64,000 nt of DNA from Candidatus Woesearchaeota archaeon (GTDB taxonomy: Archaea; Nanobdellota; Nanobdellia; Woesearchaeales; JAGVYU01), in contig JAZDHV010000006.1 of NCBI GenBank assembly GCA_043805595.1, positions 11,724 through 75,723 of the forward strand, read 5' to 3'. How positions within the stretch are numbered: position 1 is the stretch's first letter; every line of letters starts with the position of its first letter. A program made the position numbers and the translations under genes. Under the pieces are notes generated by a model that worked only from the letters and a program-made list of their open reading frames with translations, was not told the origin of the DNA and made no database searches. Positions 1,251 to 61,556 of the stretch are shown here, piece by piece.

Positions 1251-1699
1251 GCTCCAGAATAATAAGCAATAGCAGTGCAACTACCAACAAATGCTGCCAA
1301 GGCTACAGCTGTTAAACCTCCTTTAATCAAAGTTGATGAGACTGGATGCCTTAAACACCATAATTGATAGTCTGAATAATGAAGCTGTTGATTTACTAAT
1401 TGTCTCAACTCAGGATCTTCATTCCCAACATAAATCTCTTCTAATCCACTTCTTGCTGCAGATCTTTCATATTCAGGATATCTTGGAACCATTCTTAACT
1501 CTTGGACATCTTCAAAACCATCTGACCAGCCAGTAGTCCTATATCCAAGGTCCCTGCGCTCTCCTGTATCTACTAATCTTTTTACTTGATCATTTAATGT
1601 TTTTCCAAATCTTGCTATTAAATCATGCACAGCATCAGTACTAATAGTAGAGTCCATACTTAAGGAGAATACGCTTGAATCTAAAGAACCACCAGTCAT
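1229..1699 (-). CDS. Hypothetical protein with C-terminal TM segment
   Basis: 156 aa ORF; hydrophobic C-terminus GGLTAVALAAFVGSCTAIAYY; start codon lies inside palindrome P1 of repeat copy A. Confidence 0.4.
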   Translation of the reverse strand: MTGGSLDSSVFSLSMDSTISTDAVHDLIARFGKTLNDQVKRLVDTGERRDLGYRTTGWSDGFEDVQELRMVPRYPEYERSAARSGLEEIYVGNEDPELRQLVNQQLHYSDYQLWCLRHPVSSTLIKGGLTAVALAAFVGSCTAIAYYSGAITIDIQ

Positions 1700-1846
1700 A
1701 GACTGGTGGGATTCAATAATTCCACGTCCATTACATCTAAGGACTGGTGGTTCTTAGTGCTCAGGAATTTTTCACTCCTGAAAGCTAAATCAATCAAAGA
1801 TTGCCACCAGCCATAGACTGGGTGGAAAATTCCTGACATTTTAAAG
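1681..1846 (+). repeat. Palindrome-rich repeat element, copy A (~165 bp)
   Basis: Starts ctaaagaaccaccagtcatagactggtgg; contains CCACCAGTC-ATA-GACTGGTGG (1689-1709), half-site GACTGGTGG (1742-1750), degenerate second palindrome (1804-1825) and inverted pair TCAGGAATTTT/AAAATTCCTGA; near-identical to 61392-61556. Confidence 0.85.
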
Positions 1847-1952
1847 TTAATCCCAAAACAGCAGAAACCTCAAAAAAGGTTCCTAAGATTTGAAATATTA
1901 AAAAAAATTTCCCAAAACATTTAAATATCGACTTAAATTCTGATATTCTATC

Positions 1953-2108
1953 GGGGCTGTAGTATAATCTGGCTAGTATAGCGGCCTCCAGTGATGGAGG
2001 GATGAGCCATTTCGGCGATGAATAATCTTTCTGCTGAAGACAGCCGTGGATCTGGGTTCAAATTTGCCAAAAGAACATTATTTTGGCATGAAAATCCCAG
2101 CAGCCCCA
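1953..2108 (+). tRNA. Candidate tRNA-Trp(CCA) with two introns (canonical 37/38 intron ~50 nt; second ~32-nt intron in T-loop region)
   Basis: Acceptor GGGGCTG (1953-1959) pairs with CAGCCCC (2101-2107) plus discriminator A; D-arm with GG; anticodon stem GCGGC/GCCGT around loop CU-CCA-G; T-arm CTGGG-TTCAAAT...CCCAG split by hairpin-forming insert (GCCAAAA/TTTTGGC); first intron carries C/D-box-like motifs (GTGATGG, CGATGAA, CTGA); T-run follows. Confidence 0.5.
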
Positions 2109-2119
2109 TTTTATCTTTC

Positions 2120-2576
2120 CTAAAGAACCACCAGTCATAGACTGGTGGGATTCAATAAATCCGTAAATACCTTATGATAGAACTGGTGGTTCTTAGTGCT
2201 CAGAATGCTCAGAAATCTTTTTAAAAAATTTCTGGCATGCCAAAAATGCTCTGCATTTTTGTGCATTTTCCAGCTTATGCAGGCAGAATCATGCAAAGCT
2301 TGCCGCCAGTCAGAGACTGGATGGAAATGCTCAGAAAAGCTTTGCTTTTCTGGCACACTTAGAAATGCTAAATGCATTTCTTGTGCCCAAAAAACACAAA
2401 GTGTTTTTTAGGGTGTTAAAAATCTGAAAGATTTTTATACAATTCTGACATTTTAATAAAATTTCTGGCATGCCAAAAATGCTTTTCATTTTTGAGCATT
2501 TTTCTGATTCCAATATTGGGACTGGCTTTCGGCCACCAGTTAAAAACTGGTGGAAAATTTCTGACATTTAAAAAAG
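2120..2576 (+). repeat. Degenerate, internally re-duplicated copy of the palindrome-rich element (copy B mosaic)
   Basis: Begins with same ctaaagaaccaccagtcatagactggtgg (palindrome 2128-2148); half-site 2181-2189; degenerate GCCGCCAGTC-AGA-GACTGGATGG 2302-2324; variant CCACCAGTT-AAA-AACTGGTGG 2533-2553; aatttctggcatgccaaaaatgct unit occurs twice (about 2228 and 2458). Confidence 0.75.
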
Positions 2577-3392
2577 ATGGCACAAACAATAATCAGGAGA
2601 GCTAGAAGAGCAAATGACTTAGTTAGTCCAAGGTTTCTGACACAAGTGCCTCAGCGTGATTATATTCTAGAAGGGATCTCAGAACTAGTCAGGATCACAA
2701 CTGAGACCGGCTATGAAGCGGATTTTGATGTCTACAAAAGAGCAAGAACAGAAAAACTTCATATTTCAAAATACATCACTATTGGTGATGAAAATTCAGT
2801 AAGCCTGATATCAGGACTAAACAGGCTATCCTGGGAATATATTGAAAAAATAGGAAAAGACCCTCGATACAAAAGCAATCAAGATGATTTTGAAAGGTTT
2901 GTCAGAAATCATGAGATTGGATTTCAATCACCTATGCCAAAACAAGGCGAAATACCTTATGAAGAATTTGACAGAAGGACAGATTATGCATTATTATCTG
3001 TCCACTCACACCCAGGTGGAGCTGCGCATGCTTCAAGAGAAGACCTGCTTCATCTGAACAATATTAGAAGAATAGATTTTAAAAGAAGGTTAATGAGCAA
3101 CCCAATCAGCATGGTCATTGGAGTATATCAAGACAGCACCAAGACTCATGATGAAGATGAACTGGTAAGAATAATATTCGGCACTGAGCAGTCAGGTGAA
3201 ATAATGCTGTTCCAAGAGAAAAGCGAATGGCCTCATTCAATAAAAACAATAAAAAGGGCTGCGAAGTCATATCTATCTGAAACAGCAGAACAATCTAAAA
3301 AATCATACAATATTGCGAGAGGGCAATATCATGCTGATGAAAAAATGATTGAGGTTCCAGCAGGCTTGCTTGAATTTGGGTTTAGATTCTAA
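2577..3392 (+). CDS. JAB/MPN (JAMM) metallopeptidase-domain protein
   Basis: 271 aa; exact JAMM signature H-S-H-x7-S-x2-D in LSVHSHPGGAAHASRED with upstream Glu. Confidence 0.6.
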   Translation: MAQTIIRRARRANDLVSPRFLTQVPQRDYILEGISELVRITTETGYEADFDVYKRARTEKLHISKYITIGDENSVSLISGLNRLSWEYIEKIGKDPRYKSNQDDFERFVRNHEIGFQSPMPKQGEIPYEEFDRRTDYALLSVHSHPGGAAHASREDLLHLNNIRRIDFKRRLMSNPISMVIGVYQDSTKTHDEDELVRIIFGTEQSGEIMLFQEKSEWPHSIKTIKRAAKSYLSETAEQSKKSYNIARGQYHADEKMIEVPAGLLEFGFRF

Positions 3393-3433
3393 ATATATTT
3401 ATTATTTCCATAATTAATCCAATATAGGATAAT

Positions 3434-4519
3434 TTATTCTATTTTTTTAGCAAAGCCTTGTTTTGTGTCTATAAGAACAAGATCATTGTCTTTCAGAACT
3501 TTTGTAGCAAACTTTGTGCCTATCAAAGCAGGTATCTTGTATTCTCTGCTAAGAATAGCTGCATGGCATGTAACTCCACCTTCATCAGTTATTATTGCTC
3601 CTGCTTTTTTTAGATTTGGAGTTATTAAATCAGTTGTAGTCATCTGAGTAACTAAAACATCACCTTGATTTATCTTGTTCATATCTTCCCTTGTTTTAAT
3701 ATGCTTGACTATTCCCTGATATCTTGCGTCAAAAGTACCTTGGCCTTTTAACTCAGAACTATACACTTCATTTTCAAGATAATGAAGTATTAAAGAGGCA
3801 TTCTCATGCATTGAATACTGTCCATTAGCAAGAATAAAAACACACTTTTGCCTTTCTCTGACTTTTTTGTCAATATCAATTTTATATCCCTTGATAACTT
3901 GTTCAACCTCTTTAGGTGTTAAGAATTTAAGATCATTCACTGTAATTTTTAGCCTATTGGCAATTTCCTTAAACAGAGGCTCTGCTATTTCATGTGTTTC
4001 ATTAAATTTAGATCTTCCTAAAAGCCGCATATTAGCCATAATGTCAACAACTTCTTTTACAAAAATGCTTTTATCATCTTCTATACCTCTTGAGTCTACA
4101 CTGATCAGAAATGTTGGGTAAGCCTGCTTATAGAGAAAGAAATATTTCTTTATTAAGTGAAGCAATTCGATTCTGCTCCTTTTATTCAGGTTTTTAAGGC
4201 TATTGGAGAATTCTATTAAATCACCAAATTTCTCTTTTCCTTCCTCAAGAATCTTATGCATGAAATAATGATCCTGTTCGAGATTATTTTTAATGAATTT
4301 GTCAAGTTCTGAAGAGATTTCATTTCTCCAGAAATGAGAATAAGACATCCCATCCCTTATGGTCAGATAATCTGGATGTTTAATTCCAAATCTTTCTACA
4401 AATTCATTTGTCATTGCTTCATAAACTAAGCAATTCTTCAAGAAATCATTCTTTCTTTCTGCAATTAATTCCCATTTCATTTTAATCAGCAATTTCTGTG
4501 AAAGAATATATTGGAACAA
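3434..4519 (-). CDS. PEP-utilizing enzyme mobile (swivel phosphohistidine) domain protein; PEP synthase / rifampin phosphotransferase-like C-terminal half without ATP-grasp domain
   Basis: 361 aa; C-terminal GGVTCHAAILSREYKIPALIGT matches the conserved phosphohistidine swivel motif. Confidence 0.7.
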   Translation of the reverse strand: MFQYILSQKLLIKMKWELIAERKNDFLKNCLVYEAMTNEFVERFGIKHPDYLTIRDGMSYSHFWRNEISSELDKFIKNNLEQDHYFMHKILEEGKEKFGDLIEFSNSLKNLNKRSRIELLHLIKKYFFLYKQAYPTFLISVDSRGIEDDKSIFVKEVVDIMANMRLLGRSKFNETHEIAEPLFKEIANRLKITVNDLKFLTPKEVEQVIKGYKIDIDKKVRERQKCVFILANGQYSMHENASLILHYLENEVYSSELKGQGTFDARYQGIVKHIKTREDMNKINQGDVLVTQMTTTDLITPNLKKAGAIITDEGGVTCHAAILSREYKIPALIGTKFATKVLKDNDLVLIDTKQGFAKKIE

Positions 4520-5237
4520 CTCCTTTTGAGACTAAATCATCAATATTTGCTTGATTAACCTTATTATGGCGGTCAACTAAATATAAGCTTGGATTCACTC
4601 CAGCTGATTGAAATCCTTGATAGGCTGCATATAAAACAGATGGCTTATCGTCATAGAAAGCCTTAATATCCCTGTCTAATAAAGCTGGGACTCTTGCAAA
4701 AGTCTCTGGGTCATTCTTATCGCCAATCTCTTCTCCAACAAGAAGACCATCATATTGGCAAGTGTTTCCGATTAATAATTCAATTAATTCAATTGAACCT
4801 GATGTTAATAAGTAAACAAGATTTCCTTGTCCTCTGACAAGATTAAATCTTGGAGCGACATCATCATATACTATTTCAGAGGGATCTACTTCTAGTTCTC
4901 CTGCCTTTATAGCCTCGACCCAAGCATAATTCAATAAATTAAAGTCATCCTGAGAAATATTCCCTCTTGTCCTATGGAATTCTCTTATTCTCTCTAAAGC
5001 TTCTGGATCAGTTATATACTTTCCAGCAAGTTCACTAGCAATAAAATCATATCCTTGTCTGAATGGGCCTGTTATGACTCTTCCTACATCATATAGCTCG
5101 ATTCTTGGTTCTTGAGATTCAGATCCTTTTGTTGGATTTTGGTCTACTCTTTGTTCCAAATCTTGCTCTTCATCTCGTTCTCCTTTATCCTCATGTTCTT
5201 CTCTGTCGCCTGTTTGCTCTTCTTCCATTGTCATCAC
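4482..5237 (-). CDS. Hypothetical acidic protein, co-operonic with PEP-utilizer gene (38-nt overlap)
   Basis: 251 aa ORF with Glu/Asp-rich N-terminus; no recognised domain. Confidence 0.4.
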   Translation of the reverse strand: MMTMEEEQTGDREEHEDKGERDEEQDLEQRVDQNPTKGSESQEPRIELYDVGRVITGPFRQGYDFIASELAGKYITDPEALERIREFHRTRGNISQDDFNLLNYAWVEAIKAGELEVDPSEIVYDDVAPRFNLVRGQGNLVYLLTSGSIELIELLIGNTCQYDGLLVGEEIGDKNDPETFARVPALLDRDIKAFYDDKPSVLYAAYQGFQSAGVNPSLYLVDRHNKVNQANIDDLVSKGVVPIYSFTEIAD

Positions 5238-5355
5238 CTAATTAGTTGTCATAACTAAGTTTTCTATGCATTAGAAGTGAATATTGAGTATATTAATATT
5301 TGTTGTAATCATAATGACAACAATGTTTATATACTTGTTAATATTCCAATTAGAT

Positions 5356-6075
5356 ATGATCACAGAAATATTAGGAGAAATTGGATTAAGTGGAACAGAA
5401 GCTAAAGTTTATGTAGCTTTGCTGGAATTAGGATCAGCTTTAGCTGGAGAAATTACTAAAAAGTCTGAAGTGAATAGGACAAATGTTTATGATGCATTGG
5501 AAAGACTAATAAAAAAAGGTCTTGTTACATATGTGATAAGTGCCAACAGAAAAGTGTTTGAGCCTATAAAACCAGAAAGGATAAAAGAAATTCTTAAGGA
5601 AAAAGAAGAAAAGGTTAACTCAATAATGGAAGAATTGAATACTAAGTACATTACAAGCAAAACAAAAGAGCAAGCAACAATATTTAAAGGAAAGATGGGA
5701 ATTAAGTTAATTTTTGAAGATATTCTTAAAGAAGGCAAAATACTTTATGCATATGGAGCTGAAAGCAGATTTGCAGATAACTTTCCATCATACTTTAAAA
5801 TATGGAACAAGAGAAGGGCTAAACTAGGGATTAAAGTAAAGATGCTCTATAATGAAAAAGTAAGGAAAATAAAATTAACAGAGGGATTTAGATTATTAAC
5901 AATGAAATTCCTTCCAAAACAATATGAATTTCCTTCAACAATCCTTATCTATAATGATAAGGTTGTAACAATTGCATGGTCAGATATTCCATTTGGATTT
6001 ATGATTGAAAGCAAAGAAGCTGTAAGAAGCCAGATGAGTTTCTTTCATATTTTATGGAAGACTGCAAAAGAGTAG
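5356..6075 (+). CDS. TrmB-family transcriptional regulator
   Basis: N-terminal wHTH LSGTEAKVYVALLELGSALAGEITKKSEVNRTNVYDALERLIKKGLV typical of TrmB; start taken at internal Met MITEILGEIGL (ORF track begins at 5284). Confidence 0.75.
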   Translation: MITEILGEIGLSGTEAKVYVALLELGSALAGEITKKSEVNRTNVYDALERLIKKGLVTYVISANRKVFEPIKPERIKEILKEKEEKVNSIMEELNTKYITSKTKEQATIFKGKMGIKLIFEDILKEGKILYAYGAESRFADNFPSYFKIWNKRRAKLGIKVKMLYNEKVRKIKLTEGFRLLTMKFLPKQYEFPSTILIYNDKVVTIAWSDIPFGFMIESKEAVRSQMSFFHILWKTAKE

Positions 6076-6171
6076 AAAAGATTATTCTTTTACTATCAGA
6101 ATATCTTTGGTTCTACCAACCCCACAAATCATCATAAAGAAATTAAAGAAAGTGAAGTTTTATTAATTCCT

Positions 6172-6657
6172 CTAATCTCTCTTCATCAATTCCTCTAATT
6201 TCCCAAATTGTTTAGCATACAATGGTAAAACTTCCTCTGTTGAATGGATTTGAGTCATCTTAGGAATTCTCCAGAAACTATCTTCTCCATAAGCATGTTG
6301 TTCTGTAACTTGCAAAGGCTTTGCAGGTTTTCTACTGAGAAATCTTTTTGGTTTAAAATGAGTAGCTAATTCAACTTGGATTTCTCTTGGATAAAGCAGA
6401 AAATCAGTAGACATTTCCCTTCTTGGATCAGTATTTAGAGATTCCATCCTTATTTCACCAGATCTGAATGCATCCACATAGAATAACCACTCTAATTTAT
6501 GATCAAAGCTTTCTTCCAGCAAATAGTTCCTTGGACCATCCCACTGCTTTAAACCAATTGCCCTTAAACCATTTCTATCAAGGTCTGCATATTTTACAGT
6601 TTGCCCTGCTAATATTTCCCTCACAGCATCAATTACTTCTCTATCATTTGTGTACAT
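6172..6657 (-). CDS. Hypothetical protein
   Basis: 161 aa ORF between the two TrmB paralogs, opposite strand; no recognised motif. Confidence 0.4.
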   Translation of the reverse strand: MYTNDREVIDAVREILAGQTVKYADLDRNGLRAIGLKQWDGPRNYLLEESFDHKLEWLFYVDAFRSGEIRMESLNTDPRREMSTDFLLYPREIQVELATHFKPKRFLSRKPAKPLQVTEQHAYGEDSFWRIPKMTQIHSTEEVLPLYAKQFGKLEELMKRD

Positions 6658-6721
6658 TTTATTTTCCTCCTACATGTTTATTTGTAACACATTAGTAACT
6701 ACACATAGTATACTTAAGTTT

Positions 6722-6746
6722 TTGTTGTAATATTATATTACAACAA
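6722..6746. promoter_or_regulatory. Perfect 25-bp palindrome TTGTTGTAATAT-T-ATATTACAACAA in divergent promoter region (candidate TrmB operator)
   Basis: Seen directly, ~40 bp upstream of TrmB paralog start (6785); related TTGTTGT-N10-ACAACAA at 5300-5326 upstream of the other TrmB paralog. Confidence 0.4.
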
Positions 6747-6784
6747 TAATAAAATTTAAATACTGGAAAACAACTGCACTCTGT

Positions 6785-7528
6785 ATGAATCCAAAATTAA
6801 TACTTGAAAACGCAGGATTGGCAGGAAATGAAGTAAAAATCTATCTTGATCTTCTTGGTCTAGGATCTGCTTTGGCAGGAGAAATCACAAAAAAGTCAGG
6901 TATTAATAGGACAAATGTCTATGATGCTTTGGAAAGACTTATAGAAAAAGGCCTTGTCAGCTATGTTATAAAAACAAATAGAAAATATTTTGAAGCTGCT
7001 GAGCCAACTAGAATCACTAAGTTCCTGTCTGAAAAACAGGAAGAGATAGAACAAAAAAAGAAATTAGTAAATTCAATACTTCCTGAATTAAAGGCTAAAA
7101 GAATGCTAAGTAAAGAGCCTCAAGAAGCGACAATTTTTAAAGGCAGGAAAGGAATAAAATCAGTGGCTGAAGATGTCATAAAGACGAAAAAAGAATTACT
7201 TGTTTTTGGAGCAGAAGGCAAGTTTGTAGATTTATTCACACACTATGCAAGGCAATGGCATTTGAAAAGAAAAGAAAACAGAATTCCATTAAAAATTCTT
7301 TTTAATGAAAAAATTAGAAAAAAGAAATCCAAAGAAAAGTTTCCTATCTGTCAAATGCGATATAGCTCAAATATACAAGAGACTCCAGCAACAACATGGA
7401 TCTATGGTGACAAGGTAGCGATAATGGTTTGGGGAGAGCAGCCAATTGCCACTTTGATAAGAAGCAAAGAGGTAGCAAAATCATATAAAGTAAATTTTGA
7501 TCTTTTGTGGGATTTGGCCAAAAAATGA
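6785..7528 (+). CDS. TrmB-family transcriptional regulator (paralog of 5356..6075)
   Basis: N-terminal EVKIYLDLLGLGSALAGEITKKSGINRTNVYDALERLIEKGLV is near-identical to the HTH of the upstream paralog. Confidence 0.75.
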   Translation: MNPKLILENAGLAGNEVKIYLDLLGLGSALAGEITKKSGINRTNVYDALERLIEKGLVSYVIKTNRKYFEAAEPTRITKFLSEKQEEIEQKKKLVNSILPELKAKRMLSKEPQEATIFKGRKGIKSVAEDVIKTKKELLVFGAEGKFVDLFTHYARQWHLKRKENRIPLKILFNEKIRKKKSKEKFPICQMRYSSNIQETPATTWIYGDKVAIMVWGEQPIATLIRSKEVAKSYKVNFDLLWDLAKK

Positions 7529-7600
7529 TAGTTAATAAATATTCAATTGCAAATAATTAGAAACTTGATTAAAGAAACTTGTTTATAATTAATAATAAAG

Positions 7601-7608
7601 TTTATATA
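7601..7608 (+). promoter_or_regulatory. TATA-box-like TTTATATA ~25 bp upstream of transporter start
   Basis: Position and sequence fit archaeal TATA element for a leaderless transcript; inference only. Confidence 0.3.
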
Positions 7609-7630
7609 ATTATTATATGAGGAAAAGAAT

Positions 7631-8791
7631 ATGAAAAAAGAGGTGTGGGAGGCAGCTGCGACATTAGTCGGAGCAACAATCGGCGCAGGAGTCTTGGGAA
7701 TCCCTTATGTGATTGCAAAAGCAGGGTTTATTGTAGGCCTCGTGGATATCTTGATCATAGGTTTCTTCATCCTAATGCTTCAGCTCTATATGGGTGAGAT
7801 TGTATTGAGGACAAAAGGAAACCATCAGATAACAGGATTTGCAGAGAAATATATCGGGAAAAAAGGAAAATTTATTGTTGCATCACTTTTCATATTAAGC
7901 ATTTACGGTGCCTTGATTGCCTACCTGATTGCCAGCGGAGAATTATTGTCGACGATATTTGGAGGAAACCCAATATATTATGGATTTGGATTCTTTGTCT
8001 TCTGCAGCACAATAATATATATTGGAATCAAGGCAATCAAAAGATGGGAACTAGGGATATCAATGATCCTTATCGGGATCCTAATACTGATAATAACAGT
8101 ATCCTTCACAAAAATCAATTATTCAAATTTTCACCTAGTTAACTTTAACAATATACTTGTACCATATGGAGTTATCCTATTCTCATTATTTGGCACAGTG
8201 GCAATACCAGAGATGAAAGAAGAGCTCAAGAAGAACAAGAAAGAGCTGAAAAAAGCAATAATAATCGGGACAACTATATCAATACTGATTGCAATAATCT
8301 TCAGCTTTGCTGTATTAGGAGTGGTTGGACTACAGAATTTTGAGAGTCTTGAAACAGACAAAAGAATTGCAACAATAGCACTTGGGCAAATAATGGGGAG
8401 AAATATGCTCATATTTGCAAACTTGTTTGCATTATTTGCAATAACAACAAGCTTTTTAGTATTAGGCTATGGGTTAAAGGAGATGTTCCATTTTGATGAC
8501 CATATTGGATGGAGGCTGTCATGGATCTTCACAATATCTGTACCAATAATTTTTTTCTTCATTGACTCATTTATTGTCGATATCACCAATTTTATCAATA
8601 TAATCGGATTTACAGGAACTTTTGCATTAGGGTTAATAGGAATAATGACTGTCATCATATATATGAAAGCCAAGAAATACGGGGAGAGAAAACCAGAATA
8701 TACAATTGCAAAAAACAGAGTGATAGAATATCTTCTGATTGGGTTGTTTGTTCTTGGAATGGCTTATGAGATTGTTAAAATGTTAATATAA
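7631..8791 (+). CDS. Amino-acid permease-family transporter (Trp/Tyr permease / AAAP-like), ~11 TM
   Basis: 386 aa polytopic membrane protein; N-terminal EAAATLVGATIGAGVLGIPY motif typical of amino acid transporters. Confidence 0.65.
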   Translation: MKKEVWEAAATLVGATIGAGVLGIPYVIAKAGFIVGLVDILIIGFFILMLQLYMGEIVLRTKGNHQITGFAEKYIGKKGKFIVASLFILSIYGALIAYLIASGELLSTIFGGNPIYYGFGFFVFCSTIIYIGIKAIKRWELGISMILIGILILIITVSFTKINYSNFHLVNFNNILVPYGVILFSLFGTVAIPEMKEELKKNKKELKKAIIIGTTISILIAIIFSFAVLGVVGLQNFESLETDKRIATIALGQIMGRNMLIFANLFALFAITTSFLVLGYGLKEMFHFDDHIGWRLSWIFTISVPIIFFFIDSFIVDITNFINIIGFTGTFALGLIGIMTVIIYMKAKKYGERKPEYTIAKNRVIEYLLIGLFVLGMAYEIVKMLI

Positions 8792-8813
8792 GAAAATTAA
8801 TATGAGAATTAGA

Positions 8814-9398
8814 TTATTCCTCTATTCTATGTGTAATTTCAAGGTAAGGCCTATTGCCCCCAATCACCCATAATCTCTCACCAGGCATAAACAAGTCCTT
8901 AGAAAGCAAAAGCCTTCTCTGATTATCCATATGGGATTCACCATAAACATATCCTTTGAAATTAACATAATGTTGATTTACATCAGGAAAAACTAGATTT
9001 CTCTTTAAGATCCTATTTTCACCAATGACACATGTCTTGTATTTTCCCTCGGATTCAGGAAATAGATTGTAATAAGACGGAGGTATGCAAATCCTTCTTC
9101 CTTGATCGACTTTAACACCTTTTTTTATAGGATTTGAAAAGAGGATAGCACTTTCAGGATAATCTTGATTAGATCCTTGATAAGGCAACATAGCTAACAA
9201 TTCCCTAAATTCTATCATTGTAATAGGATCTAAATTGCAATCCAATCCTCTTCCACTTAATAACAGACCATGATCATGAGGAAGGAGCCCTTTTTCAACT
9301 GCTTCAACCACTAATTCAGGTGTAATTGAAAAATAATCAGCTAAATCATCTAGATCAAACATAATACCAAGTCTTCTTGCTGTACTCTTTGTTGTCAT
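8814..9398 (-). CDS. Hypothetical protein
   Basis: Start taken at internal Met (MTTKSTARRL) to avoid overlap with the 3' end of the giant gene; no recognised domain. Confidence 0.4.
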   Translation of the reverse strand: MTTKSTARRLGIMFDLDDLADYFSITPELVVEAVEKGLLPHDHGLLLSGRGLDCNLDPITMIEFRELLAMLPYQGSNQDYPESAILFSNPIKKGVKVDQGRRICIPPSYYNLFPESEGKYKTCVIGENRILKRNLVFPDVNQHYVNFKGYVYGESHMDNQRRLLLSKDLFMPGERLWVIGGNRPYLEITHRIEE

Positions 9399-9447
9399 GA
9401 TAAATCGAAGTATAAATTGATTTAAAAATGTTACGGTTAAGTAGTAA

Positions 9448-12400
9448 CTATTTCTTAGAATTCTTATCTTTTTTAGAAGATTTATTATCTTTTTCTTTTT
9501 CCTTTTTATTATTATTCTCATCCAAAAAATCAAGGATCTTGTCATTATATTTTACAAACAATATGATGATAAAAACAATGACTAAGCCTGCAATAATATA
9601 ATTGAGATAATCAATGAAAAAAGAGGCTGGTTTGCTTATAATCAAACTGGCACTTTCCTTAATCTTGCCTAAAAAATCATTCAAATCCTCTTTAATTTTC
9701 TCTGAAATAGGAACATCAGGAGCTTTCTTTACAATAAGGAGCACTTCATTGCTCTCAACAACACCTCCCTTGCCATCATCAGCTGTAAATACCACTGTTT
9801 CAGCACCACTAAATCCTGGGTCATGGATTAACTTAGCTATACCAAGTTCATTGTCAATATCAATATTTATATGATCTGTAGACTCAGCTGAATAAACAAG
9901 CTTATCACCATCAGGATCAATGAAATATTGAGAAAGATCTAAGGATCTATTCTCATCAAAATTCCAGACCTGGATGGGAATACCTTTTTCATCAATAATA
10001 GTCTTATTAACAGATAAAATCCTGATCAGATTGTTCAATTCATTGACAGACAGTCGTGTCTTAACAATAATATCAACCATATTCTTTATCAACAAATCAG
10101 CGAACTCATCGTTAGAAAGGATTGCGTTGGATTCAGTGTTGACAACCTTGCCTTCAGCATTATACTTATAACGGCCATCTGATATTGAGCTGAGGATCTC
10201 ATCAGTCCTAAACTCCTCAATTGTTGTAGTGGGTTTCTCAGGTATTGTGACCAATGTTGTTACAATCATCGTTGTTGATGTTATCTCAGCTGAACTCAAT
10301 GCTGTCTCTGCAGTTGGAGTAATCAAAGAAGAGATTGTGTCATAATTATAATAAACCAAGCTGACAATAACAGCTATTATCACTAAAATAAGCAGATATA
10401 TTGGCCATTGGAGATCATCCTCCTTTTTAGGCTTTTTCTCCCTGATTATCTTTTCTTTTGGTTTTTCAGTTATCTTTTTTGGAGCAACAATGACTGTCTT
10501 TTCAACAGGCTTTTCTATTTTTTTTAATTCAATAATAGGCTTTTTCTCCAAAATAACAGGTTTCTCCCTCATCAGACCAGCAATTGCATAATAGCTAAAA
10601 TCAGGAAGTTTTGTCTCAAAATAAAGGAATGAATCATCCTCATCAATGATCTTAGTAGAAATATCAATCCATTGGCGCTTTTCATACCTCTTTATAATAA
10701 TTGATTTTGGATCAATATCTTGATACACAATCCATGATTTCTTAACCCTGAACCTCAGAAGGACATTTGAAAGGTTGTTTTCACTTATATTTTTTGCATC
10801 TATCTCAAAATACCTATAAACATGAGGGGAAGGCCTGATGAAAGTAGGCTTTTTTTTCAAACCTTTGATAGAGATTGATGCATTGCTAATCCTGCTCCTG
10901 ATCCTAAATGATATCTCACCAATACCAATCTTCTCATTCACTGGGATTGTGACATCATCACCAACTGAATATGTTGAGAGTGATTTTTCAAAATAATATG
11001 CACTACTCCTCCTTTTAACATATGAGCGTATAATAATCAAAATAATGACAATTAAAATGCCAATAATAATGTAAGTGAGATTATTCATCAAAAAAAGCAA
11101 GATAAAATTTATTATGCTCCATGCACCAAAAAAGATTGATTTAACAATTCCATATAAAAAACTTAGAATGTTGAGTATTCCAATCTTCTTATGGATATAA
11201 TAAATCAAGGCAATCAATATTGCAAGAAGCACAAGCAAAAACAATAAGGCAGGCCAGATTTTTGGCTCAACAATCTCAGGACCTATCTGCATCTTTTCAT
11301 CTTTTTTTACCTGCTTTTCAACCAGTTTTTTAGGTTCAATATTTTGACCTTTCTTTATTTCCGCTTTTATTGTCTCATCTTTCCTGATCTCATCTTTTTT
11401 TTCTGGTATTACTGGCTTTTCTTTTTTTGGCCACTTTGAAATAAAAGATATTACCTTAATCAGAATTATCAAAAGAACCAGGACAATGATTCCAGCAATG
11501 ATATAGGGGAAATAATCATTAATCATGGTTCTAACAGGTGTTATCACATTGTTGAGTGAGCCTGATAATGTCTGCAAAAATCCTATATTTTCTCCAGATA
11601 AAGTTGTTGATGTTGTTAAAGGCCCACTAGTAGTTGTGACATCTACTAATGATGATGTTGTAGTCTCAATCAAAGTGGTTGTTGTTTCAGCCAAAGTTGT
11701 TGTCTCTACAATCTCTATTGCAGTGGTTGCTGTAACATTTTCATAAGGCAAGAATGGCAACATATTCATGTAATAAAAAGCAGTGACAATTATTGCAATC
11801 AAGATAATCAAGAATACAGGCCAAACAGGAGGTCTTTTCTTTTCCTCTTTTGTATCCTTTAACACTAATTTTTTAACAGGCCCTGCCTTGGCTCTCTTTA
11901 ATGGCTTTTTCTCAACATTTTTTATCAATTCTTTTCTCTTTTTCTCTTGTTCTATTCTCTTTTTCTCCTTTTCTAATCTTTTCTTTTCCCTATTCTTTTT
12001 ATTGAGCTCTTTTTTCCTTGCCCTTTTCACTCTCCATTTGCTGTATCTAACTCTTATTTTTCCAGATGTTTTCCTTGAGAATCTAAGAAGTGGTCTTCTA
12101 AAAATTAGAATTATGATGATTAGTAACAATAAGGTAATTCCTGCCAAGAAAAACCATTTATACAATAAGACAAAATTATAAGCTGATTTAAAGTATCCAA
12201 AAATAGTATCCTTTAATGTACCTATAACACCCTTAATTTTCTCATACAATATCCCAATCTTGGATGTGAGAGGGGGTTCAATTGCAGCCACTTCTGTCGT
12301 TGTCACTTCCTCTACTGTTGCAGCAGTTGTCTCATTTACTGGAACAAACAAAGACTTGAAAAAAGGCGCGATAGGATAAGCCAGAAAGACATAGATCAGG

Positions 12401-14145: not shown

Positions 14146-14356
14146 ATAAACCCTATCTCAAAGTTAAAAAACTAGAAGTATTAAAAATAATACTATTGTT
14201 AAAGAAATATGATTTTTAAATTATTTTAGAATATATAGGTTAATATCATACAAGAGATTAATTGAGGAATTAGTCTGAAATTGATAAGATACTGAAGAAT
14301 TAGATTTTATTGATAAAAAATACAAAAAAGAAAAAAATAAAGGAGTAAATGAAAAG

Positions 14357-14396
14357 TAAAATAAAAAAAAATTAAAATTTTTGTGTTGTTCGGAAC
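14357..14396 (-). terminator. Hairpin GTTGTTC-G-GAACAAC followed by T-run (on - strand) immediately downstream of S-layer-like gene
   Basis: Perfect 7-bp stem at 14382-14396 next to stop at 14402; T-rich stretch follows on coding strand. Confidence 0.4.
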
Positions 14397-14401
14397 AACA
14401 A

Positions 14402-15715
14402 TTAATAATAAGTTTGTGTCCCTTCTGCGTCCTCGTCTTCATCGCCTTTTAATTTGTTAAATCCAATTATCAGGCCAAGAATGACTAAAAGGACGACTAA
14501 AACAACCAAACCAATCTCCAAGCCTCTCTTAAGGCTTGATCCAGCAACACCACTAGCTGATGTTCCAGCAACATTTGCTGTAAGTGGAATCTGTTTTAAA
14601 ACACTGTCTCCTGAACTTACAGATAGGCTGAATCCATACTGACCAGCTGGCACGCCCTGCTTTGCTGACAAGAACACTAAAACTGAATCAGCATCACCAG
14701 CATTTACCAATATTGTGTTACTTGGCTGGATTGAAGCATCTAACTGGTTTCCACCATTAACAGATACTGTGTAAGCTCTTGTTGAAGAACCTGCATTAGT
14801 AATTGTCACCTGGTAAGCACCTGCTCCTTCTCCAGTAGATACATCCTGAACCTTGATTATTGTTGAAGGTCCAGCTTCTGGTTGTGTAGTTGGAACTACA
14901 GTATCAAGCTCACAAGCTTCATTTGGAATAACCTCGATTGTCCTTGTTGTTGAAGCAACCTCGTCACCATCATCATAGGTAACATCGATCTGTACTGTGT
15001 AATCTCCTGCTTCAGCACAATCAGGAATCCTCATGTAAAGCTCTTCACTTGTTGTTTGATCATCATCTTCACCCTCAGGCTCAAGCTCATCAATGTAGTC
15101 AGCAGCTGAAATTCCTAATTCTGGTATAGATACTTCAACTTTAACGCCGTCTTCATTTCTGTCTCCATTATTTTCAACCCTAACAGTTGTCAATAGAGCT
15201 CTTCCAGCCTTTATCTTTCCAGCAGGTGAAAAGATAACATCGTCAATATCAATTAAATGTTCTGGGGTTTCAACTAAGATTGCATAATATCTCATTATTG
15301 AAATATCCCTTGTGGTTCCATGAATAGTTAATATTATATCATAAATCCCTGGTTCCATTCTTTTTGTCAATCTTAGATCAAGTCTCTCAATGTATCTTCC
15401 TCCGACAGTCAAATCAAAAACTTCTGATTCAGCTGCAATCACATCATCTCTAGAATCACCTTTAATCTCAACTTCAATTTCGACATATCTATCTGTTGAC
15501 TCATTTGCATTAAATGTTATTTTCAATGGTAATGTTTCTCCTCTATCAAGAACTGCAAAGGAACCAGTTAGTGGATCTGGATCTCCTTCTGGTAGCTCGA
15601 TATTGTCGAGATAAACTGTTATTGAACTCTCGTCTATCTGTGCACTTGCAATTGTTGTAAGTGCCAAGACACTTATCAGAAACATTAACAACATTCCGAA
15701 TATTTTACTTTTCAT
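14402..15715 (-). CDS. S-layer-like secreted surface protein with C-terminal TM anchor and acidic tail
   Basis: 437 aa; N-terminal signal peptide MKSKIFGMLLMFLISVLALTTIASA; C-terminal GLEIGLVVLVVLLVILGLIIGF followed by DEDEDAEG; Thr/Ser/Gly/Asp-rich beta-like composition. Confidence 0.55.
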   Translation of the reverse strand: MKSKIFGMLLMFLISVLALTTIASAQIDESSITVYLDNIELPEGDPDPLTGSFAVLDRGETLPLKITFNANESTDRYVEIEVEIKGDSRDDVIAAESEVFDLTVGGRYIERLDLRLTKRMEPGIYDIILTIHGTTRDISIMRYYAILVETPEHLIDIDDVIFSPAGKIKAGRALLTTVRVENNGDRNEDGVKVEVSIPELGISAADYIDELEPEGEDDDQTTSEELYMRIPDCAEAGDYTVQIDVTYDDGDEVASTTRTIEVIPNEACELDTVVPTTQPEAGPSTIIKVQDVSTGEGAGAYQVTITNAGSSTRAYTVSVNGGNQLDASIQPSNTILVNAGDADSVLVFLSAKQGVPAGQYGFSLSVSSGDSVLKQIPLTANVAGTSASGVAGSSLKRGLEIGLVVLVVLLVILGLIIGFNKLKGDEDEDAEGTQTYY

Positions 15716-15947
15716 TTGTTTTACCCCCTATATAATTTATTTTAATATTGATAGTTATATGGACGTAATTACATACTCATTTATAAACCTTTCGATTAAT
15801 GAGTATTATATAGTAATTACACCTAATAACTATGGTATAGTAAATACAACTTATATTTAAATATTATTGTATCATACTATATATATTTCCACTCGTAACT
15901 TTCAATACATCACCTTCTTTTTTTAGATATCCCCTCATATTAATCAA

Positions 15948-20201: not shown

Positions 20202-20283
20202 AAATAAATCCCCCCTATTGTCTTGTTTATGATTTTGTTAATCTATTTTAAATGAAAATGAAAAAATGAAATTATTAATGATA

Positions 20284-25261: not shown

Positions 25262-25330
25262 CTAAAGAACCACCAGTCAGAGACTGGTGGAATTCACTAA
25301 ATCCACAACTGCAATACCTCCATGAAGCAC
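25262..25330 (+). repeat. Truncated copy C of the palindrome-rich element
   Basis: ctaaagaaccaccagtcagagactggtggaattcactaaatcc; palindrome 25270-25290; diverges after ~45 bp. Confidence 0.7.
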
Positions 25331-47455: not shown

Positions 47456-47463
47456 AATATAGG

Positions 47464-56915: not shown

Positions 56916-56988
56916 TTCTAAATTGCATTGGATACCCTGATATTTACGGGTAAAAAATAAAATACCTAATAAGTACTACTAAAAAGTT

Positions 56989-57972: not shown

Positions 57973-58015
57973 GAAACCAACAAATTTAAAAACATCTATC
58001 TATTGATGTTCGATT

Positions 58016-59446: not shown

Positions 59447-60344
59447 GGATTTTTAACCCATCACCCAAAGAGGTTTTTGGAGTGAAATTGCAGAGTTCTT
59501 CCATCTCTTCTGAAGAGCCGATGAATGAGATTGGCTCAGCTGTTGTTCCTTGAGTGATTATATCTGGATTTTCTATTCCAAAAGTTTTTGCCGCCTCAAG
59601 AATGAGTTCTTTTATTGTCAAAGGATTTCCAATACAAAAGTCAATCACTTTGTTGCTGGCTTTTTCGCTTTCAATTATTTTCAAGATGCCCTCAATAGCA
59701 TCATCTATAAACATTGCATCTATAAGATTTGTGCCATCCCCTCTGATTGTAAACTCATGCTTGTTCTCGATTCCAAATGATCTTACTAATTGAGAGTATA
59801 TCTTTCTCTCAGGCTCATGAGGGCCATATGCTCCGAAAAACCTTACAATCACATAATCTGAGAGATTATGCCTCTCTTTATGAAAGAATTTAATGTATTG
59901 CTCTGCTGCAAGCTTTGAAATAGCATAAGGGAGAGTGGGATTTAAAGGTTGATCTTTTGCAGGACCTTTGATGCCATCATAAACTGCTCCAGATGAGAAG
60001 AATATGAGTCTTTTCCCTTTGAAATAAGTGAGGAAGTTAATTAAAGCTGTGACATTCAGCTCAAAATCAAGTTTTGGATCCTGCACAGAGATTGTTGGAT
60101 TAGCATTTGCAGCCAGATACAAGCAGATATCAAAATCATTGCTTGAAGATAAATATGTCTTGATCTGTTCTTTGTCCAAAAGATCACATTTAACAGGAGT
60201 TGTGTTGCTTAGAGAATTTTTATTTATGAATTCAGGAAAATCAGATGAAGAGTTGTAAAAAGCAAATATTTCCCAATCCTTTGGAGCCTTTAAAAGGAAA
60301 TTTTTTCCGATAAATCCAGAAGCACCTGTTACCAAAACTTTCAT
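59418..60344 (-). CDS. NAD-dependent sugar epimerase/dehydratase/reductase (SDR family)
   Basis: 308 aa; MKVLVTGASGFIGKNF Rossmann; YAISKLAAE (YxxxK). Confidence 0.75.
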   Translation of the reverse strand: MKVLVTGASGFIGKNFLLKAPKDWEIFAFYNSSSDFPEFINKNSLSNTTPVKCDLLDKEQIKTYLSSSNDFDICLYLAANANPTISVQDPKLDFELNVTALINFLTYFKGKRLIFFSSGAVYDGIKGPAKDQPLNPTLPYAISKLAAEQYIKFFHKERHNLSDYVIVRFFGAYGPHEPERKIYSQLVRSFGIENKHEFTIRGDGTNLIDAMFIDDAIEGILKIIESEKASNKVIDFCIGNPLTIKELILEAAKTFGIENPDIITQGTTAEPISFIGSSEEMEELCNFTPKTSLGDGLKILKDFCEKTA

Positions 60345-60361
60345 CCTTATTCACCTAATTA

Positions 60362-61330
60362 TCAATCCAATTTATCAACATTATCCTTAAACCATTCAAG
60401 GGAGAGCCTTATGCCTTCATCAATATCAATTTTTGGAGTATAACCCAGAATTTTATTTGCTTTATCAACAACTGGAACCCTATTCTTCACATCAGGATAG
60501 TCAATATCCTTAAAAACAATTTTTGAACTTGAACCCGAATGCTTAATAATCTTTTCAGCAAGCTCTTTTGTGGAGACTGAAGCAGAAGGATTTCCAATAT
60601 TAAATATATGGCCAATAGCCTCTTTTCTTTCAATCATGGCAAAAATCCCTTCAATAAAATCTGATACATAACACCAAGCTCTAATTGCAGAGCCATCACC
60701 ATGTATAGTTAAGCCATCTCCTTTAACAGAATTTATCAAGAAATTTCTGATAGCTCCCCCACCAACCTGCCTAGGACCATAAACATTGAAAGGTCTGACA
60801 GAACACACTGGAATATTGAATTCCTTATGGTATGAGAAAGACAATAGCTCTGATGAAAGCTTTGAAATAGCATAACTCCAACGAGGCTCTGTTATAGGCC
60901 CCTGGACTGTATTAGAATTTTCATCAACATTCTCTGCATCAGGACCATAAACTTCACTTGTCGAGAAATCTATCAGGATATCAATATCCTTGCCTTTGAC
61001 AGCTTCAAGAATATTGTATGTTCCGAACAAATTTACAGAGAATGTCTTAGCAGGGTGGTCAACAACATTCTTGACACCTGCAATAGCTGCCATATGCAAG
61101 AAGACTGTTGCAGAAGAACTTTCAACTGCATCTTTTAATACCTTTGTGTCAAGGACATTACCTCTTATAAAAGTAAGATTTTCATGATCTTTGAAAGGGC
61201 AAAGCTTTAAGGCATTTCTTTCACAATTATCATATATTGTGATCCTATTATTATCTATCAGTTTCTCAATAATATGGGAAGCAATGAAACCTGCCCCACC
61301 TGTAATGAAAATATTCTTGTTTTCTATCAT
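60362..61330 (-). CDS. NAD-dependent sugar epimerase/dehydratase (SDR family)
   Basis: 322 aa; IFITGGAGFIASHII; YAISKLSSE (YxxxK); element copy D lies in its upstream region. Confidence 0.8.
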   Translation of the reverse strand: MIENKNIFITGGAGFIASHIIEKLIDNNRITIYDNCERNALKLCPFKDHENLTFIRGNVLDTKVLKDAVESSSATVFLHMAAIAGVKNVVDHPAKTFSVNLFGTYNILEAVKGKDIDILIDFSTSEVYGPDAENVDENSNTVQGPITEPRWSYAISKLSSELLSFSYHKEFNIPVCSVRPFNVYGPRQVGGGAIRNFLINSVKGDGLTIHGDGSAIRAWCYVSDFIEGIFAMIERKEAIGHIFNIGNPSASVSTKELAEKIIKHSGSSSKIVFKDIDYPDVKNRVPVVDKANKILGYTPKIDIDEGIRLSLEWFKDNVDKLD

Positions 61331-61391
61331 TTTATAACCTAATTGTCAAGATTATTGATCAGCAACTTACCAAAACATTGATCAATAAATA

Positions 61392-61556
61392 CTAAAGAAC
61401 CACCAGTCATAGACTGGTGGGATTCAATAATTCCACGTCCATTACATCTAAGGACTGGTGGTTCTTAGTGCTCAGGAATTTTTCACTCCTGAAAGCTAAA
61501 TCAATCAAAGATTGCCACCAGTCAGAGACTGGTGGAAAATTCCTGACATTTTAATG
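61392..61556 (+). repeat. Palindrome-rich repeat element, copy D (near-identical to copy A)
   Basis: Identical to 1681-1810 over ~130 bp, then 4 substitutions/1 indel in last palindrome; palindromes 61400-61420 and 61515-61535. Confidence 0.85.

Follow-up and report, generated by a model that had tools for sequence, protein, structure and literature searches.

The near-identical repeats found at positions 1681–1846 and 61392–61556 of the 64-kb stretch of DNA analysed here (the window) are very probably palindrome-associated transposable elements (PATEs), here the non-autonomous offshoots of an IS200-like element, found in DPANN archaea, of the IS200/IS605 family of insertion sequences (IS). 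PATEs were first defined in Haloquadratum walsbyi and are of the IS200/IS605 type (Dyall-Smith et al., 2011, PMC3119063). By that definition they have palindromes near their termini, no terminal inverted repeats (TIRs), no target duplication and no room for a transposase (PMC3119063). No other IS family is as widespread in archaea as IS200/IS605 (PMC13343696). The repeats of the window match the published definition, given their subterminal palindromes, their lack of TIRs and of target duplication and a length too short for a transposase. Among other readings, a preliminary description had proposed a MITE caught after recent transposition. This was essentially right. The mobile, non-autonomous part of that reading stands, whereas the part that implies TIRs and target-site duplications gives way to subterminal hairpins and insertion without duplication.

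The two repeats were indeed near-identical and in the same orientation, as had been described: BLASTN aligned them at 98.2% identity over 164 nt, with 2 mismatches and 1 gap. Their differences all lie in the last palindrome, also as described, and consist of c/t at 1812, t/g at 1815 in the loop and, in the 3′ arm, one additional g at 1820–1822. Thus, three positions differ inside the repeat, rather than the four to five counted earlier. A fourth difference falls in the flank, just beyond the repeat. The 98% identity between these copies is due to a single sub-lineage that was recently copied within the genome, and not to a structural role at the edges of the 59.7 kb that separate them. Moreover, the two copies that had been assumed are not the only ones. 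The window contains four, all in a single orientation in which the active (top) strand is the minus strand of the window.

Copy 1 (1681–1838, minus strand), delimited by palindrome search, BLASTN and end alignments, is complete and 158 nt long. Its right end (RE), at the low coordinate, comprises the tail CTAAAGAA (minus-strand TTCTTTAG) and the RE hairpin (1689–1709). An anti-RE segment (1743–1758), an imperfect left-end (LE) hairpin (1804–1825) and the LE terminus ...TTCCTGACA (1830–1838) are on the same strand. The target or transposon-adjacent motif (TAM) of copy 1 (1839–1844), assigned from the tally of LE junctions, reads TTTTAA on the plus strand and TTAAAA on the top strand. Similar to copy 1, copy 2 (61392–61548, minus strand; BLASTN, palindrome search and end alignments) is complete, with a length of 157 nt, an RE hairpin (61400–61420), an anti-RE segment (61454–61469), an LE hairpin (61515–61535), the LE terminus TTCCTGACA (61540–61548) and, by the same tally, the TAM TTTTAA on the plus strand (61549–61554). 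Copy 3 (2120–2566, minus strand, 447 nt), identified by BLASTN and by a filled/empty comparison, is composite or nested. It contains an RE domain (2120–2195), nested small A/T-clamped hairpin modules (2196–2496), within which lies an LE-like hairpin (2303–2323), and a terminal LE hairpin (2533–2553), and it abuts the TAM TTTAAA (2567–2572). The remaining copy is a solo RE fragment of 45 nt on the minus strand (25262–25306), composed of the RE tail and the RE hairpin (25270–25290) and situated between convergent genes. The complete copies of the window (157–158 nt) and the other family members (119–213 nt) are too short for a transposase, and the open reading frames over the composite copy are only frames of 78–80 aa within the repeats.

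On the minus strand, the element is ordered as TAM (TTAAAA or TTTAAA), TGTCAGGAATTTT, LE hairpin CCACCAGTC-N3-GACTGGTGG and a variable core, followed by the RE hairpin CCACCAGTC-N3-GACTGGTGG and the tail TTCTTTAG. The element gives the appearance of an inverted repeat because the same palindrome is found at both ends. In the end alignments, however, one terminus, TGTCAGGAA..., does not match the other, ...TTCTTTAG, as an inverted repeat. A TIR-type MITE was rejected for this reason and for the lack of target-site duplication in 61 insertions. The element is palindrome-rich, as first described: at ≤3 mismatches, the window has 8 occurrences of the palindrome CCACCAGTC-N3-GACTGGTGG, versus 0.00 expected from 100 shuffles. 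The extra half-site that pairs with the 5′ end of the element and the inverted pair TCAGGAATTTT/AAAATTCCTGA are also present.

The connection to an IS200-like element is provided by the transposase genes. At approximately 23 loci identified by tblastn, the stop codon of such a gene is located 15–30 nt before a hairpin end ...CATGCCACCAGTC-N3-GACTGGTGGTTCTTGACA. The gene product is a Y1/HUH transposase (TnpA) of 145 aa that matches Pfam Y1_Tnp PF01797 above the curated cut-off (E = 2e-16 and 5e-22) and, at low sequence identity, the ISDra2 TnpA structures 2XM3/2XMA (E = 1.6e-7). The alignment with ISDra2 covers a conserved histidine pair (HVH) and an LWNPxY segment, which in this family would correspond to the HUH motif and to the catalytic tyrosine, respectively. 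A second hairpin, CCA(C/T)(C/T)AGTC-TTT-GACT..TGG, preceded by TATAA or T(A/T)TAAAG, is found 130–150 nt upstream of the transposase ATG. Given the hairpin on each side of the gene, these loci represent an autonomous IS200-like element. An alignment of REs revealed 27 invariant positions common to 5 IS copies, 1 A-type PATE and the 4 window copies, and an alignment of LEs showed that IS copies and window copies share TTCCA plus the hairpin and have the same architecture. The window copies therefore have both ends in common with the autonomous IS, with no gene inside. By tblastn, tnpA was found neither in the 64-kb window, out of a contig of 99 kb, nor in five fetched loci of the closest relative. 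The RE tail of the window sub-type, TTCTTTAG, is absent from the sampled autonomous copies, whose tails are TTCTTGACA, TTCTTGATA, TTCTTGAA or TTCTTCAC; for this sub-type, we infer a cognate transposase.

Some features of the family are shared with REP/BIME-like systems served by a domesticated, single-copy RAYT-type Y1 transposase. Solo single-hairpin units of 36–45 nt are common, as exemplified by 25262–25306 in the window and by many short RE-domain matches. There are also mosaic elements, including those with an inverted LE domain (L038, L105, L123, and L152), and the copies, all of which are intergenic, are often next to the 3′ ends of genes. Such a system, in place of PATEs of a conventional IS200, is nevertheless very unlikely. 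In the loci sampled, each transposase gene has an LE hairpin on one side and an RE hairpin on the other, both oriented alike and with the TAM next to the LE, as in IS200. Moreover, the tnpA copies found there form several diverged clades (48–100% identity) with differing flanks, two of them (L121 and L144) are pseudogenised and one IS copy is on a predicted viral contig, a pattern to be expected of a mobile IS rather than of a single-copy gene of the host.

The insertion sites also fit PATEs of an IS200-like element. The 61 unique LE junctions were dominated by TTTAAA (32), followed by TTTTAA (16), TTTTAT (5), and TTTTAC (3), i.e., 56 of the 61 conform to TTT(A/T)A(A/T/C). This motif is on the left-end side only, and the flank on the RE side is variable. 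Changes in the TAM seem to be accompanied by changes in the LE spacer. No target duplication beyond random expectation was found for the 61 distinct insertions, in which boundary repeats of 4–6 nt occurred 0–2 times, as in shuffled pairings. The locus L015, from a related Woesearchaeota MAG, is syntenic with positions 149–9902 of the window at 83–91% nucleotide identity and provides an empty site for copy 3, in which the sequence ...TTTTTTC|TTTTAAAAAGATGG... is uninterrupted and contains TTTTAAAAAG. In this comparison of one pair of genomes, the filled and empty sites differ without duplication. The site orthologous to that of copy 1 is occupied in L015 by a different sub-lineage of the element.

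A search for further copies, as the preliminary description had recommended, identified the same hairpin in 162 fetched loci of Woese-, Pace-, Nano- and Aenigmarchaeota, in addition to the two more copies in the window. The exact 24–26-mer was present in 50 genome stretches of MAGs from these four groups, whose GC contents ranged from 30 to 51%, as well as in 112 metagenome stretches and 1 IMG/VR contig. Some MAGs contained at least 8–9 copies. The RE hairpin is nearly invariant across several DPANN phyla, and the pairing of the LE hairpin is preserved across 8 distinct, perfectly complementary stem variants. In an Aenigmarchaeota MAG, the same RE hairpin closes a different short repeat family.

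The element had been called highly structured, and it folds far more stably than shuffled sequences on either strand (z = −6.6 and −6.3). Very stable predicted folds on both strands and compensatory changes that keep the stems could also speak for an element that is primarily a structured ncRNA (regulatory, a terminator or a guide similar to the TnpB omega-RNA) or an operator to which a dimeric regulator binds, both of which had been suggested before. Many PATEs of other IS200/IS605 elements reportedly encode guide RNAs (PMC10055086), and the anti-RE pairing specific to the PATEs is otherwise unexplained. Our results, however, lent no support to an RNA or operator family and make it most improbable. 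Rfam 15 returned 0 matches at gathering for the window and 13 loci, with noise only at E ≤ 1. The stem mismatches had no excess of G-U over A-C on either strand, as expected for DNA rather than RNA. An operator would keep the sequence itself instead of co-varying, and the distance and orientation to neighbouring genes are inconsistent, with a weak orientation bias (63 versus 47). As for a guide RNA, the autonomous IS copies of the loci examined in detail have tnpA but no room for a tnpB. Finally, the transposase linkage and the presence/absence polymorphism account for the conservation without any role as RNA.

The preliminary description also raised the possibility that the copies are att-like or recombination-cassette boundaries of a mobile or strain-variable envelope/glycosylation island of 59.7 kb beside a tRNA gene. 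As direct repeats of 98% identity, copies 1 and 2 could undergo homologous recombination with each other. Between them lie many genes for surface proteins, AglB/STT3, glycosyltransferases and sugar-nucleotide enzymes, the epimerase adjoining copy 2 has, its own record aside, no homologue closer than one of 61% identity, and tRNA-Trp is close by. Against such an island, which we consider extremely unlikely, stand the dispersal of the family (four copies in the window and >160 loci elsewhere) and the lack of any integrase, recombinase or transposase among all window ORFs in Pfam scans and tblastn. The repeat has no sequence in common with tRNA-Trp, the flanks of copies 1 and 2 are unrelated, and the GC content is flat (0.33–0.38), with no step at either copy. 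The synteny with L015, a test that covers the left edge, crosses copy 1 into the supposed island. At the right edge, genes for a UDP-sugar dehydrogenase, a GFO/IDH/MocA oxidoreductase and a DegT aminotransferase are found to the right of copy 2, and the gene cluster is therefore not bounded by copy 2. A large number of copies that are not associated with variable regions had been named beforehand as the mark of a generic REP/MITE family, and this is what was found.

The gene content and the tRNA were in part as first described. Surface and glycosylation genes do make up much of the interior, but region 2577–9400 encodes a JAB-like protein, a PEP-utiliser-domain protein, two TrmB regulators and an amino-acid permease, and glycosylation-type genes continue beyond copy 2. 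The tRNA is a tRNA-Trp(CCA) (1953–2108, plus strand; ARAGORN after removal of the T-loop intron) with two introns, one of 50 nt in the anticodon loop and one of ~31 nt in the T-loop, and is 100% conserved in L015. It does not abut copy 1, which is ~110 nt away; it is copy 3 that starts 11 nt past its 3′ end. This tRNA is a neighbour and outside the element.

By analogy with IS608 and ISDra2, a TnpA dimer supplied in trans would bind both subterminal hairpins of the PATEs on the single-stranded top strand, for instance at a replication fork, and would cut after the TAM as well as behind the RE tail. The circular ssDNA released in this way would be re-inserted 3′ of another TAM (“peel and paste”). 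It is from this analogy that we infer the ssDNA hairpins, the cleavage positions and the circular intermediate. The anti-RE segment, which is complementary to the RE 3′ arm plus tail, is found in every PATE and in none of the autonomous IS copies, and is not explained by the standard IS200/IS605 model. Pairing with this segment could prevail over the RE hairpin and hide the right cleavage site, in the manner of a conformational switch on excision or trans-mobilisation. Alternatively, it could be an RNA-level element (terminator or insulator) at TATA-like sites. That the family has gained a function of its own beyond that of passive PATEs seems rather unlikely to us. In the same reading, the near-invariant RE hairpin in DPANN phyla of 30–51% GC and the IS copy on a predicted viral contig would separately point to a recent passage of the family between the phyla of these episymbionts and, in a weaker variant, the direct copies of 98% identity would be recombination substrates by which the glycosylation cluster is deleted or swapped in the population.

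The main value of these results is a correction: the presumed island boundaries are a dispersed selfish element, and on this evidence an annotation of the 59.7 kb as a mobile island is not warranted. The results also define, for an IS200-like lineage of Woese-, Pace- and Nanoarchaeota that had not been catalogued and for the PATEs of this lineage, a signature of the ends, namely RE CATGCCACCAGTC-N3-GACTGGTGGTTCTT(GACA or TAG), LE TTCCA-hairpin and TAM TTTAAA or TTAAAA. Contig ends carry many copies, which indicates that the repeats break MAG assemblies. They can also pass for regulatory RNAs, and given their insertion at TATA-box-like motifs, promoters may be disturbed or donated. Finally, with this compact set of natural LE/RE/TAM variants, one could examine whether archaeal Y1 transposases follow the guide-target rule.

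IS608 of Helicobacter pylori and ISDra2 of Deinococcus radiodurans are structurally characterised members of the IS200/IS605 family. Similar to them, the lineage described here has a Y1 transposase in the range of ~140–155 aa, similar subterminal hairpins at LE and RE, a comparable geometry, with ~10–13 nt between the TAM and the LE hairpin and 8–9 nt between the RE hairpin and the end, and duplication-free insertion on the 3′ side of a short, specific target. Different from them, its target is TTTAAA/TTAAAA instead of TTAC or TTGAT, and its pairing between guide and cleavage site is putative. REP/BIME elements and their RAYTs are likewise short extragenic palindromes for a Y1 HUH enzyme, with solo hairpins and mosaics. 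Here, however, the transposase gene is inside a normal LE...RE element that is multi-copy and mobile, and the window elements have two distinct ends and a TAM. TIR-type MITEs, such as Correia elements and IS630-derived MITEs, are also small, non-coding, multi-copy, intergenic and strongly folding, but the elements of this study lack a target-site duplication and point to HUH/ssDNA rather than DDE chemistry. The closest resemblance is to the known PATEs, including the PATE-like elements of Geobacillus stearothermophilus (Meers et al., 2023, PMC10055086). In common with these, our elements have palindromes near both termini on one strand, are too short for a transposase, lack classical TIRs and target duplication, share their ends with an autonomous IS200/IS605-type element and are multi-copy and intergenic. 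Their nested tiny repeats recall the Haloquadratum “SMRs” that target PATEs. Different from the known PATEs, the host is a DPANN archaeon (Woesearchaeota) instead of a haloarchaeon or a member of the Firmicutes, the parent is IS200-like with tnpA only and no tnpB or guide RNA seen, the RE hairpin is nearly unchanged across several DPANN phyla, an additional segment, the anti-RE, is complementary to the 3′ arm and the tail of the RE, and the TAM (TTTAAA) resembles an archaeal TATA box.

The two repeats reported in the preliminary description, at 1681–1846 and 61392–61556, were 98.2% identical over 164 nt and had the same orientation, in agreement with their designation as near-identical direct repeats. 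They differed by two mismatches and one gap, all inside the last palindrome, and their flanks were unrelated to each other. The 9-3-9 palindrome CCACCAGTC-N3-GACTGGTGG occurred 8 times in the window at ≤3 mismatches (0.00 expected), and the high degree of structure ascribed to the element was confirmed, as its predicted fold on either strand was far more stable than the folds of shuffled controls (z = –6.6 and –6.3). Given this palindrome excess and these z-scores, the observation is real and non-random. In addition to copy 1 (1681–1838) and copy 2 (61392–61548), two copies that had been overlooked were identified in the same orientation, which is that of the minus strand. Copy 3 (2120–2566) is a 447-nt composite that starts 11 nt downstream of a tRNA gene, and the other is a 45-nt solo right end (RE) at 25262–25306.

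The solo RE is located 26 nt past the stop codon of two co-oriented minus-strand ORFs (25332–26105 and 26140–27036), for which no matches were found in Pfam, PHROG, or PDB. A 12-nt match to the terminus of the left end (LE; TTCCTGACATTT) at 26146–26157, with an E-value of about 0.5, is probably due to chance; a genuine LE at this site would imply a cargo-carrying element of about 0.9 kb. The minimum of the cumulative GC skew, at ~26–28 kb, is also the point at which gene strand switches from mostly minus (9–27 kb) to mostly plus (27–59 kb). This minimum could mark a replication origin or merely reflect transcription-linked skew. All four copies were in one orientation on either side of it.

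Searches of genome and metagenome collections for further copies identified many copies beyond the window. The exact pattern GAACCACCAGTC-N3-GACTGGTGG was found in 50 stretches of a one-genome-per-species collection. Judged by record titles, all but one were from archaeal MAGs, which included Woesearchaeota, Pacearchaeota, Nanoarchaeota, Aenigmarchaeota, and some “uncultured Methanosarcinales” bins, and the remaining one was labelled “uncultured Gammaproteobacteria.” GC contents ranged from 30 to 51%, and single MAGs contained at least 8–9 matches. A slightly longer pattern matched 112 stretches of metagenome sequence as well as one IMG/VR contig. A 37-mer that is found only in copies 1 and 2 had zero matches in the metagenome scan. 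Many family matches were at contig ends, which is expected because repeats break assemblies.

Full elements ranged from 119 to 213 nt, shared a common architecture and were all intergenic. Their first hairpin was almost invariant, and the pairing of the second hairpin was kept via eight different perfectly complementary stem sequences, including CCACTCGTC, CCATCAGTC, CCACTAGTC, CCACCAATC, CCATCGATT, and CCACCTTTC. Two sub-types were distinguished, of which the first starts with TGTCAAGAACC and ends with ...GGAATTCTGATG+TTTAAA, and the second, which is that of the window, starts with CTAAAGAACC and ends with ...GGAAAATTC(C)TGACA+TTTTAA. Clustering of the ORFs around the 50 genome loci did not reveal any recurrent partner gene, as only the common TrmB and glycosyltransferase families recurred. 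The orientation bias relative to neighboring genes that was apparent in the first 54 hits was weak after de-duplication (63 vs. 47).

Comparison of the window with L015, a locus from the related Woesearchaeota MAG JBDROB01, provided evidence that the repeats are mobile. L015 had a nucleotide identity of 83–91% to the window and was collinear with window positions 149–9902, so that collinearity extended across copy 1 and reached 7 kb into the supposed island. At the position of copy 3, L015 had the unbroken sequence in which ...CAGCCCCATTTTATTTTTTC is directly followed by TTTTAAAAAGATGG..., whereas in the window ...TTTTATCTTTC is followed by the element (CTAAAGAACC...TTTCTGACA) and then by TTTAAAAAAGATGG, which is a clean presence/absence difference without duplication. 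At the site orthologous to that of copy 1, L015 possessed an element of a different sub-lineage, with a different internal module and a spacer that had diverged far more than the flanks, which were roughly 90% identical. Thus, the 98% identity between copies 1 and 2 reflects recent copying within this genome. A 2.6-kb segment of the window (3492–6079), which encodes a PEP-utiliser-domain protein, an unknown ORF, and a TrmB regulator, was missing in the otherwise collinear L015.

Among 61 distinct insertions, boundary repeats were no commoner than in shuffled pairings, providing no indication of target duplication. The motif adjoining one end was TTTAAA in 32 of them, TTTTAA in 16, TTTTAT in 5, and TTTTAC in 3. 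The “TA” found after ...GACATTT and before AAGAACC in the window sub-type raised the possibility of an IS630/Tc1-like TA target duplication, which was rejected for two reasons: this TA is missing from the other sub-type, and the test for target duplication was negative. The terminal TTTAAA was also considered as a mobile promoter for the neighboring gene. This was rejected because its orientation and distance to genes were inconsistent and because the empty site shows that the motif is target DNA. Finally, integron attC-like cassettes were ruled out by the spacing between copies (0.4, 23, and 36 kb).

The preliminary description also noted that the repeats bracket ~59.7 kb containing a cell-envelope/glycosylation island, and listed an att-like boundary among its possible readings. 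Pfam scans of every ORF in the window identified a JAB-like protein, a PEP-utiliser-domain protein, two TrmB regulators, and an amino-acid permease at 2577–9400; giant surface proteins (Big_9, cadherin-like) at 9448–23932; AglB/STT3, GT2/GT9 glycosyltransferases, a flippase, and sugar-nucleotide enzymes at 27382–61330; and, to the right of copy 2 (61572–63951), a UDP-sugar dehydrogenase without its C-terminal domain, a GFO/IDH/MocA oxidoreductase, and a DegT aminotransferase. Genes for an integrase, recombinase, or transposase were not found among these ORFs. The GC content of the window was 35% and flat along its length (0.33–0.38). The mobile-island reading was therefore rejected, because the repeats belong to a multi-copy family, have unrelated flanks and no relation to the tRNA, and are not accompanied by a recombinase, and because GC is flat, synteny extends across the left copy and the gene cluster runs past the right copy. 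The synteny comparison covers the left copy only, and the nearest homolog of the epimerase encoded next to copy 2, apart from its own record, was only 61% identical. Homologous recombination between the 98%-identical direct copies 1 and 2 is at most a physical possibility.

The tRNA gene next to copy 3 is a tRNA-Trp(CCA) at 1953–2108, with one intron in the anticodon loop (50 nt) and another in the T-loop (roughly 31 nt). It was overlooked by default ARAGORN and Rfam and was called by ARAGORN after the T-loop intron was taken out by hand. The orthologous tRNA-Trp gene of L015 (about 5770–6230) contained an extra insertion of ~150 nt, at the borders of which 18 nt of the tRNA 5′ end (ATCGGGGCTGTAGTATAA) are duplicated. 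Near copy 2, the minus-strand ORF at 61572–62348 encodes a 258-aa UDP-glucose/GDP-mannose dehydrogenase-family protein with N-terminal and central domains only, and its stop codon is 17 nt from the target/transposon-adjacent motif (TAM) of this copy. This ORF may have been truncated by rearrangement at the element or may be a naturally short or split form. Other repeats in the window included a 300-nt tandem duplication (16900–17499; 96% identical) within a gene for a 1417-aa Big_9/cadherin surface protein and, in the intergenic region 62342–62477, a T-rich tract with an 8-nt period and a perfect 34-nt tandem repeat.

A search with the empty-site probe identified two groups of “solo hairpin” loci that had a conserved flank in common (72–96% identity). 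In these metagenome loci, the flank consists of an opposite-strand gene that ends 15–30 nt before the hairpin. Its product of 145–153 amino acid residues matched Pfam Y1_Tnp (PF01797) with scores above the curated cut-off (E-values of 2e-16 and 5e-22) and the crystal structures of ISDra2 TnpA (2XM3, 2XMA, and 2XO6) at about 2e-7. The alignment with ISDra2 TnpA covers the conserved histidine pair (HVH), presumably the HUH motif, as well as the LWNPxY segment with the presumed catalytic tyrosine. By tblastn, tnpA was found in about 23 of the 163 loci; its copies, some of them frameshifted, formed three or more clades with identities of 48–100%. Read in the sense of tnpA, these copies consist of a TATAA or T(A/T)TAAAG motif, a spacer of 10–20 nt, the hairpin CCA(C/T)(C/T)AGTC-TTT-GACT..TGG, about 130 nt, tnpA, and a terminal ...CATGCCACCAGTC-N3-GACTGGTGGTTCTTGACA. 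This anatomy is that of an IS200-type element. Such elements belong to the IS200/IS605 family, which is more widespread in archaea than any other IS family (PMC13343696). One tnpA-bearing copy (L051, IMGVR_UViG_3300009031_000713, 3210–3685) is on a 31.8-kb predicted viral contig and was about 98% identical to that of the metagenome locus L094; a viral contig of this type could carry the element from one DPANN host to another.

On the minus strand, the window repeats aligned with both ends of these IS copies. The RE alignment of five IS copies, one A-type element, and the four window copies contained 27 invariant positions, and the LE alignment showed that TTCCA and the hairpin are common to the window copies and the IS copies. 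The repeats are therefore palindrome-associated transposable elements (PATEs), for which the published criteria (PMC3119063) correspond to what was found: ends in common with an IS encoding a Y1 transposase, hairpins of both ends on one strand, a TAM at the LE only, presence/absence polymorphism, and neither target duplication nor coding capacity. Coding for PPVxDWW was considered and rejected, given the stop codons in the minus-strand frames read by eye. Neither the window nor the five loci retrieved from the closest relative contained tnpA, and the TTCTTTAG tail of the window sub-type was absent from every sampled IS.

The IS608/ISDra2 paradigm suggests how such elements may move. TnpA from elsewhere in the genome would bind the hairpins of both ends on the top strand (the minus strand of the window) in its single-stranded form, and would cut at two points, one past the TAM and the other past the RE tail. 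The resulting circular single-stranded DNA would then be re-inserted 3′ of another TTTAAA-type site. The LE spacer and the TAM apparently co-vary (...GAATT-hairpin with TTTAAA and ...AATTTT-hairpin with TAAAA), which hints at guide-target pairing as in IS608.

All PATEs, and none of the IS copies, contained an “anti-RE” segment, which reads (C)TAAGAACCACCAGTC on the top strand. This segment, which can pair with the 3′ arm and the tail of the RE by complementarity, corresponds to the extra half-site noticed previously. Its pairing dominates the predicted MFE fold, and at the locus L013 the complementarity is kept by a different sequence pair. The preliminary description had included a structured ncRNA or operator among its readings. 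Stem mismatches comprised 13 A-C/C-A and 10 G-T/T-G, which gave no RNA signal and fits DNA hairpins rather than RNA, and no Rfam family matched the element.

Four loci (L038, L105, L123, and L152) contained PATE variants whose LE domain is inverted relative to the RE domain, which could result from recombination across the palindromic LE stem or from matching ambiguity of this near-palindromic domain. The Aenigmarchaeota MAG JACPAG01 (loci L009–L011, L014, L022, L029, L039, and L040) possessed a different repeat family of about 110–250 nt, which has only the GAACCACCAGTC-N3-GACTGGTGG hairpin, followed by TATCGCTTGTATCAA, in common with the PATEs. Five of its copies were on one 183-kb contig, all in the same orientation.

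A search of the literature found no published description of this IS200-like lineage or its PATEs, and the palindrome 9-mers retrieved only primer noise from full texts. In a previous MITE census, the density of these elements in one Woesearchaeal genome was among the highest of all archaea (PMC11602168). The IS lineage and its PATEs are not surprising, and they are useful for annotation and for studies of Y1-transposase target rules. PATE-like derivatives that are mobilised in trans have been described in Geobacillus (PMC10055086). Tiny A/T-clamped hairpin modules, which form a second family, were nested in the PATEs at window positions 2196–2496 and at 3880–3995 of the locus L163, where a module is situated in the loop of an RE hairpin, and were also found in the tRNA insertion of L015. 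These modules (AAAAATGC-N3-GCATTTTT, AAAAACAC-N3-GTGTTTTT, AAAAATCT-N4-GATTTTT, and GGCATGCC) resemble the “small mobile repeats” of Haloquadratum, which target PATEs.
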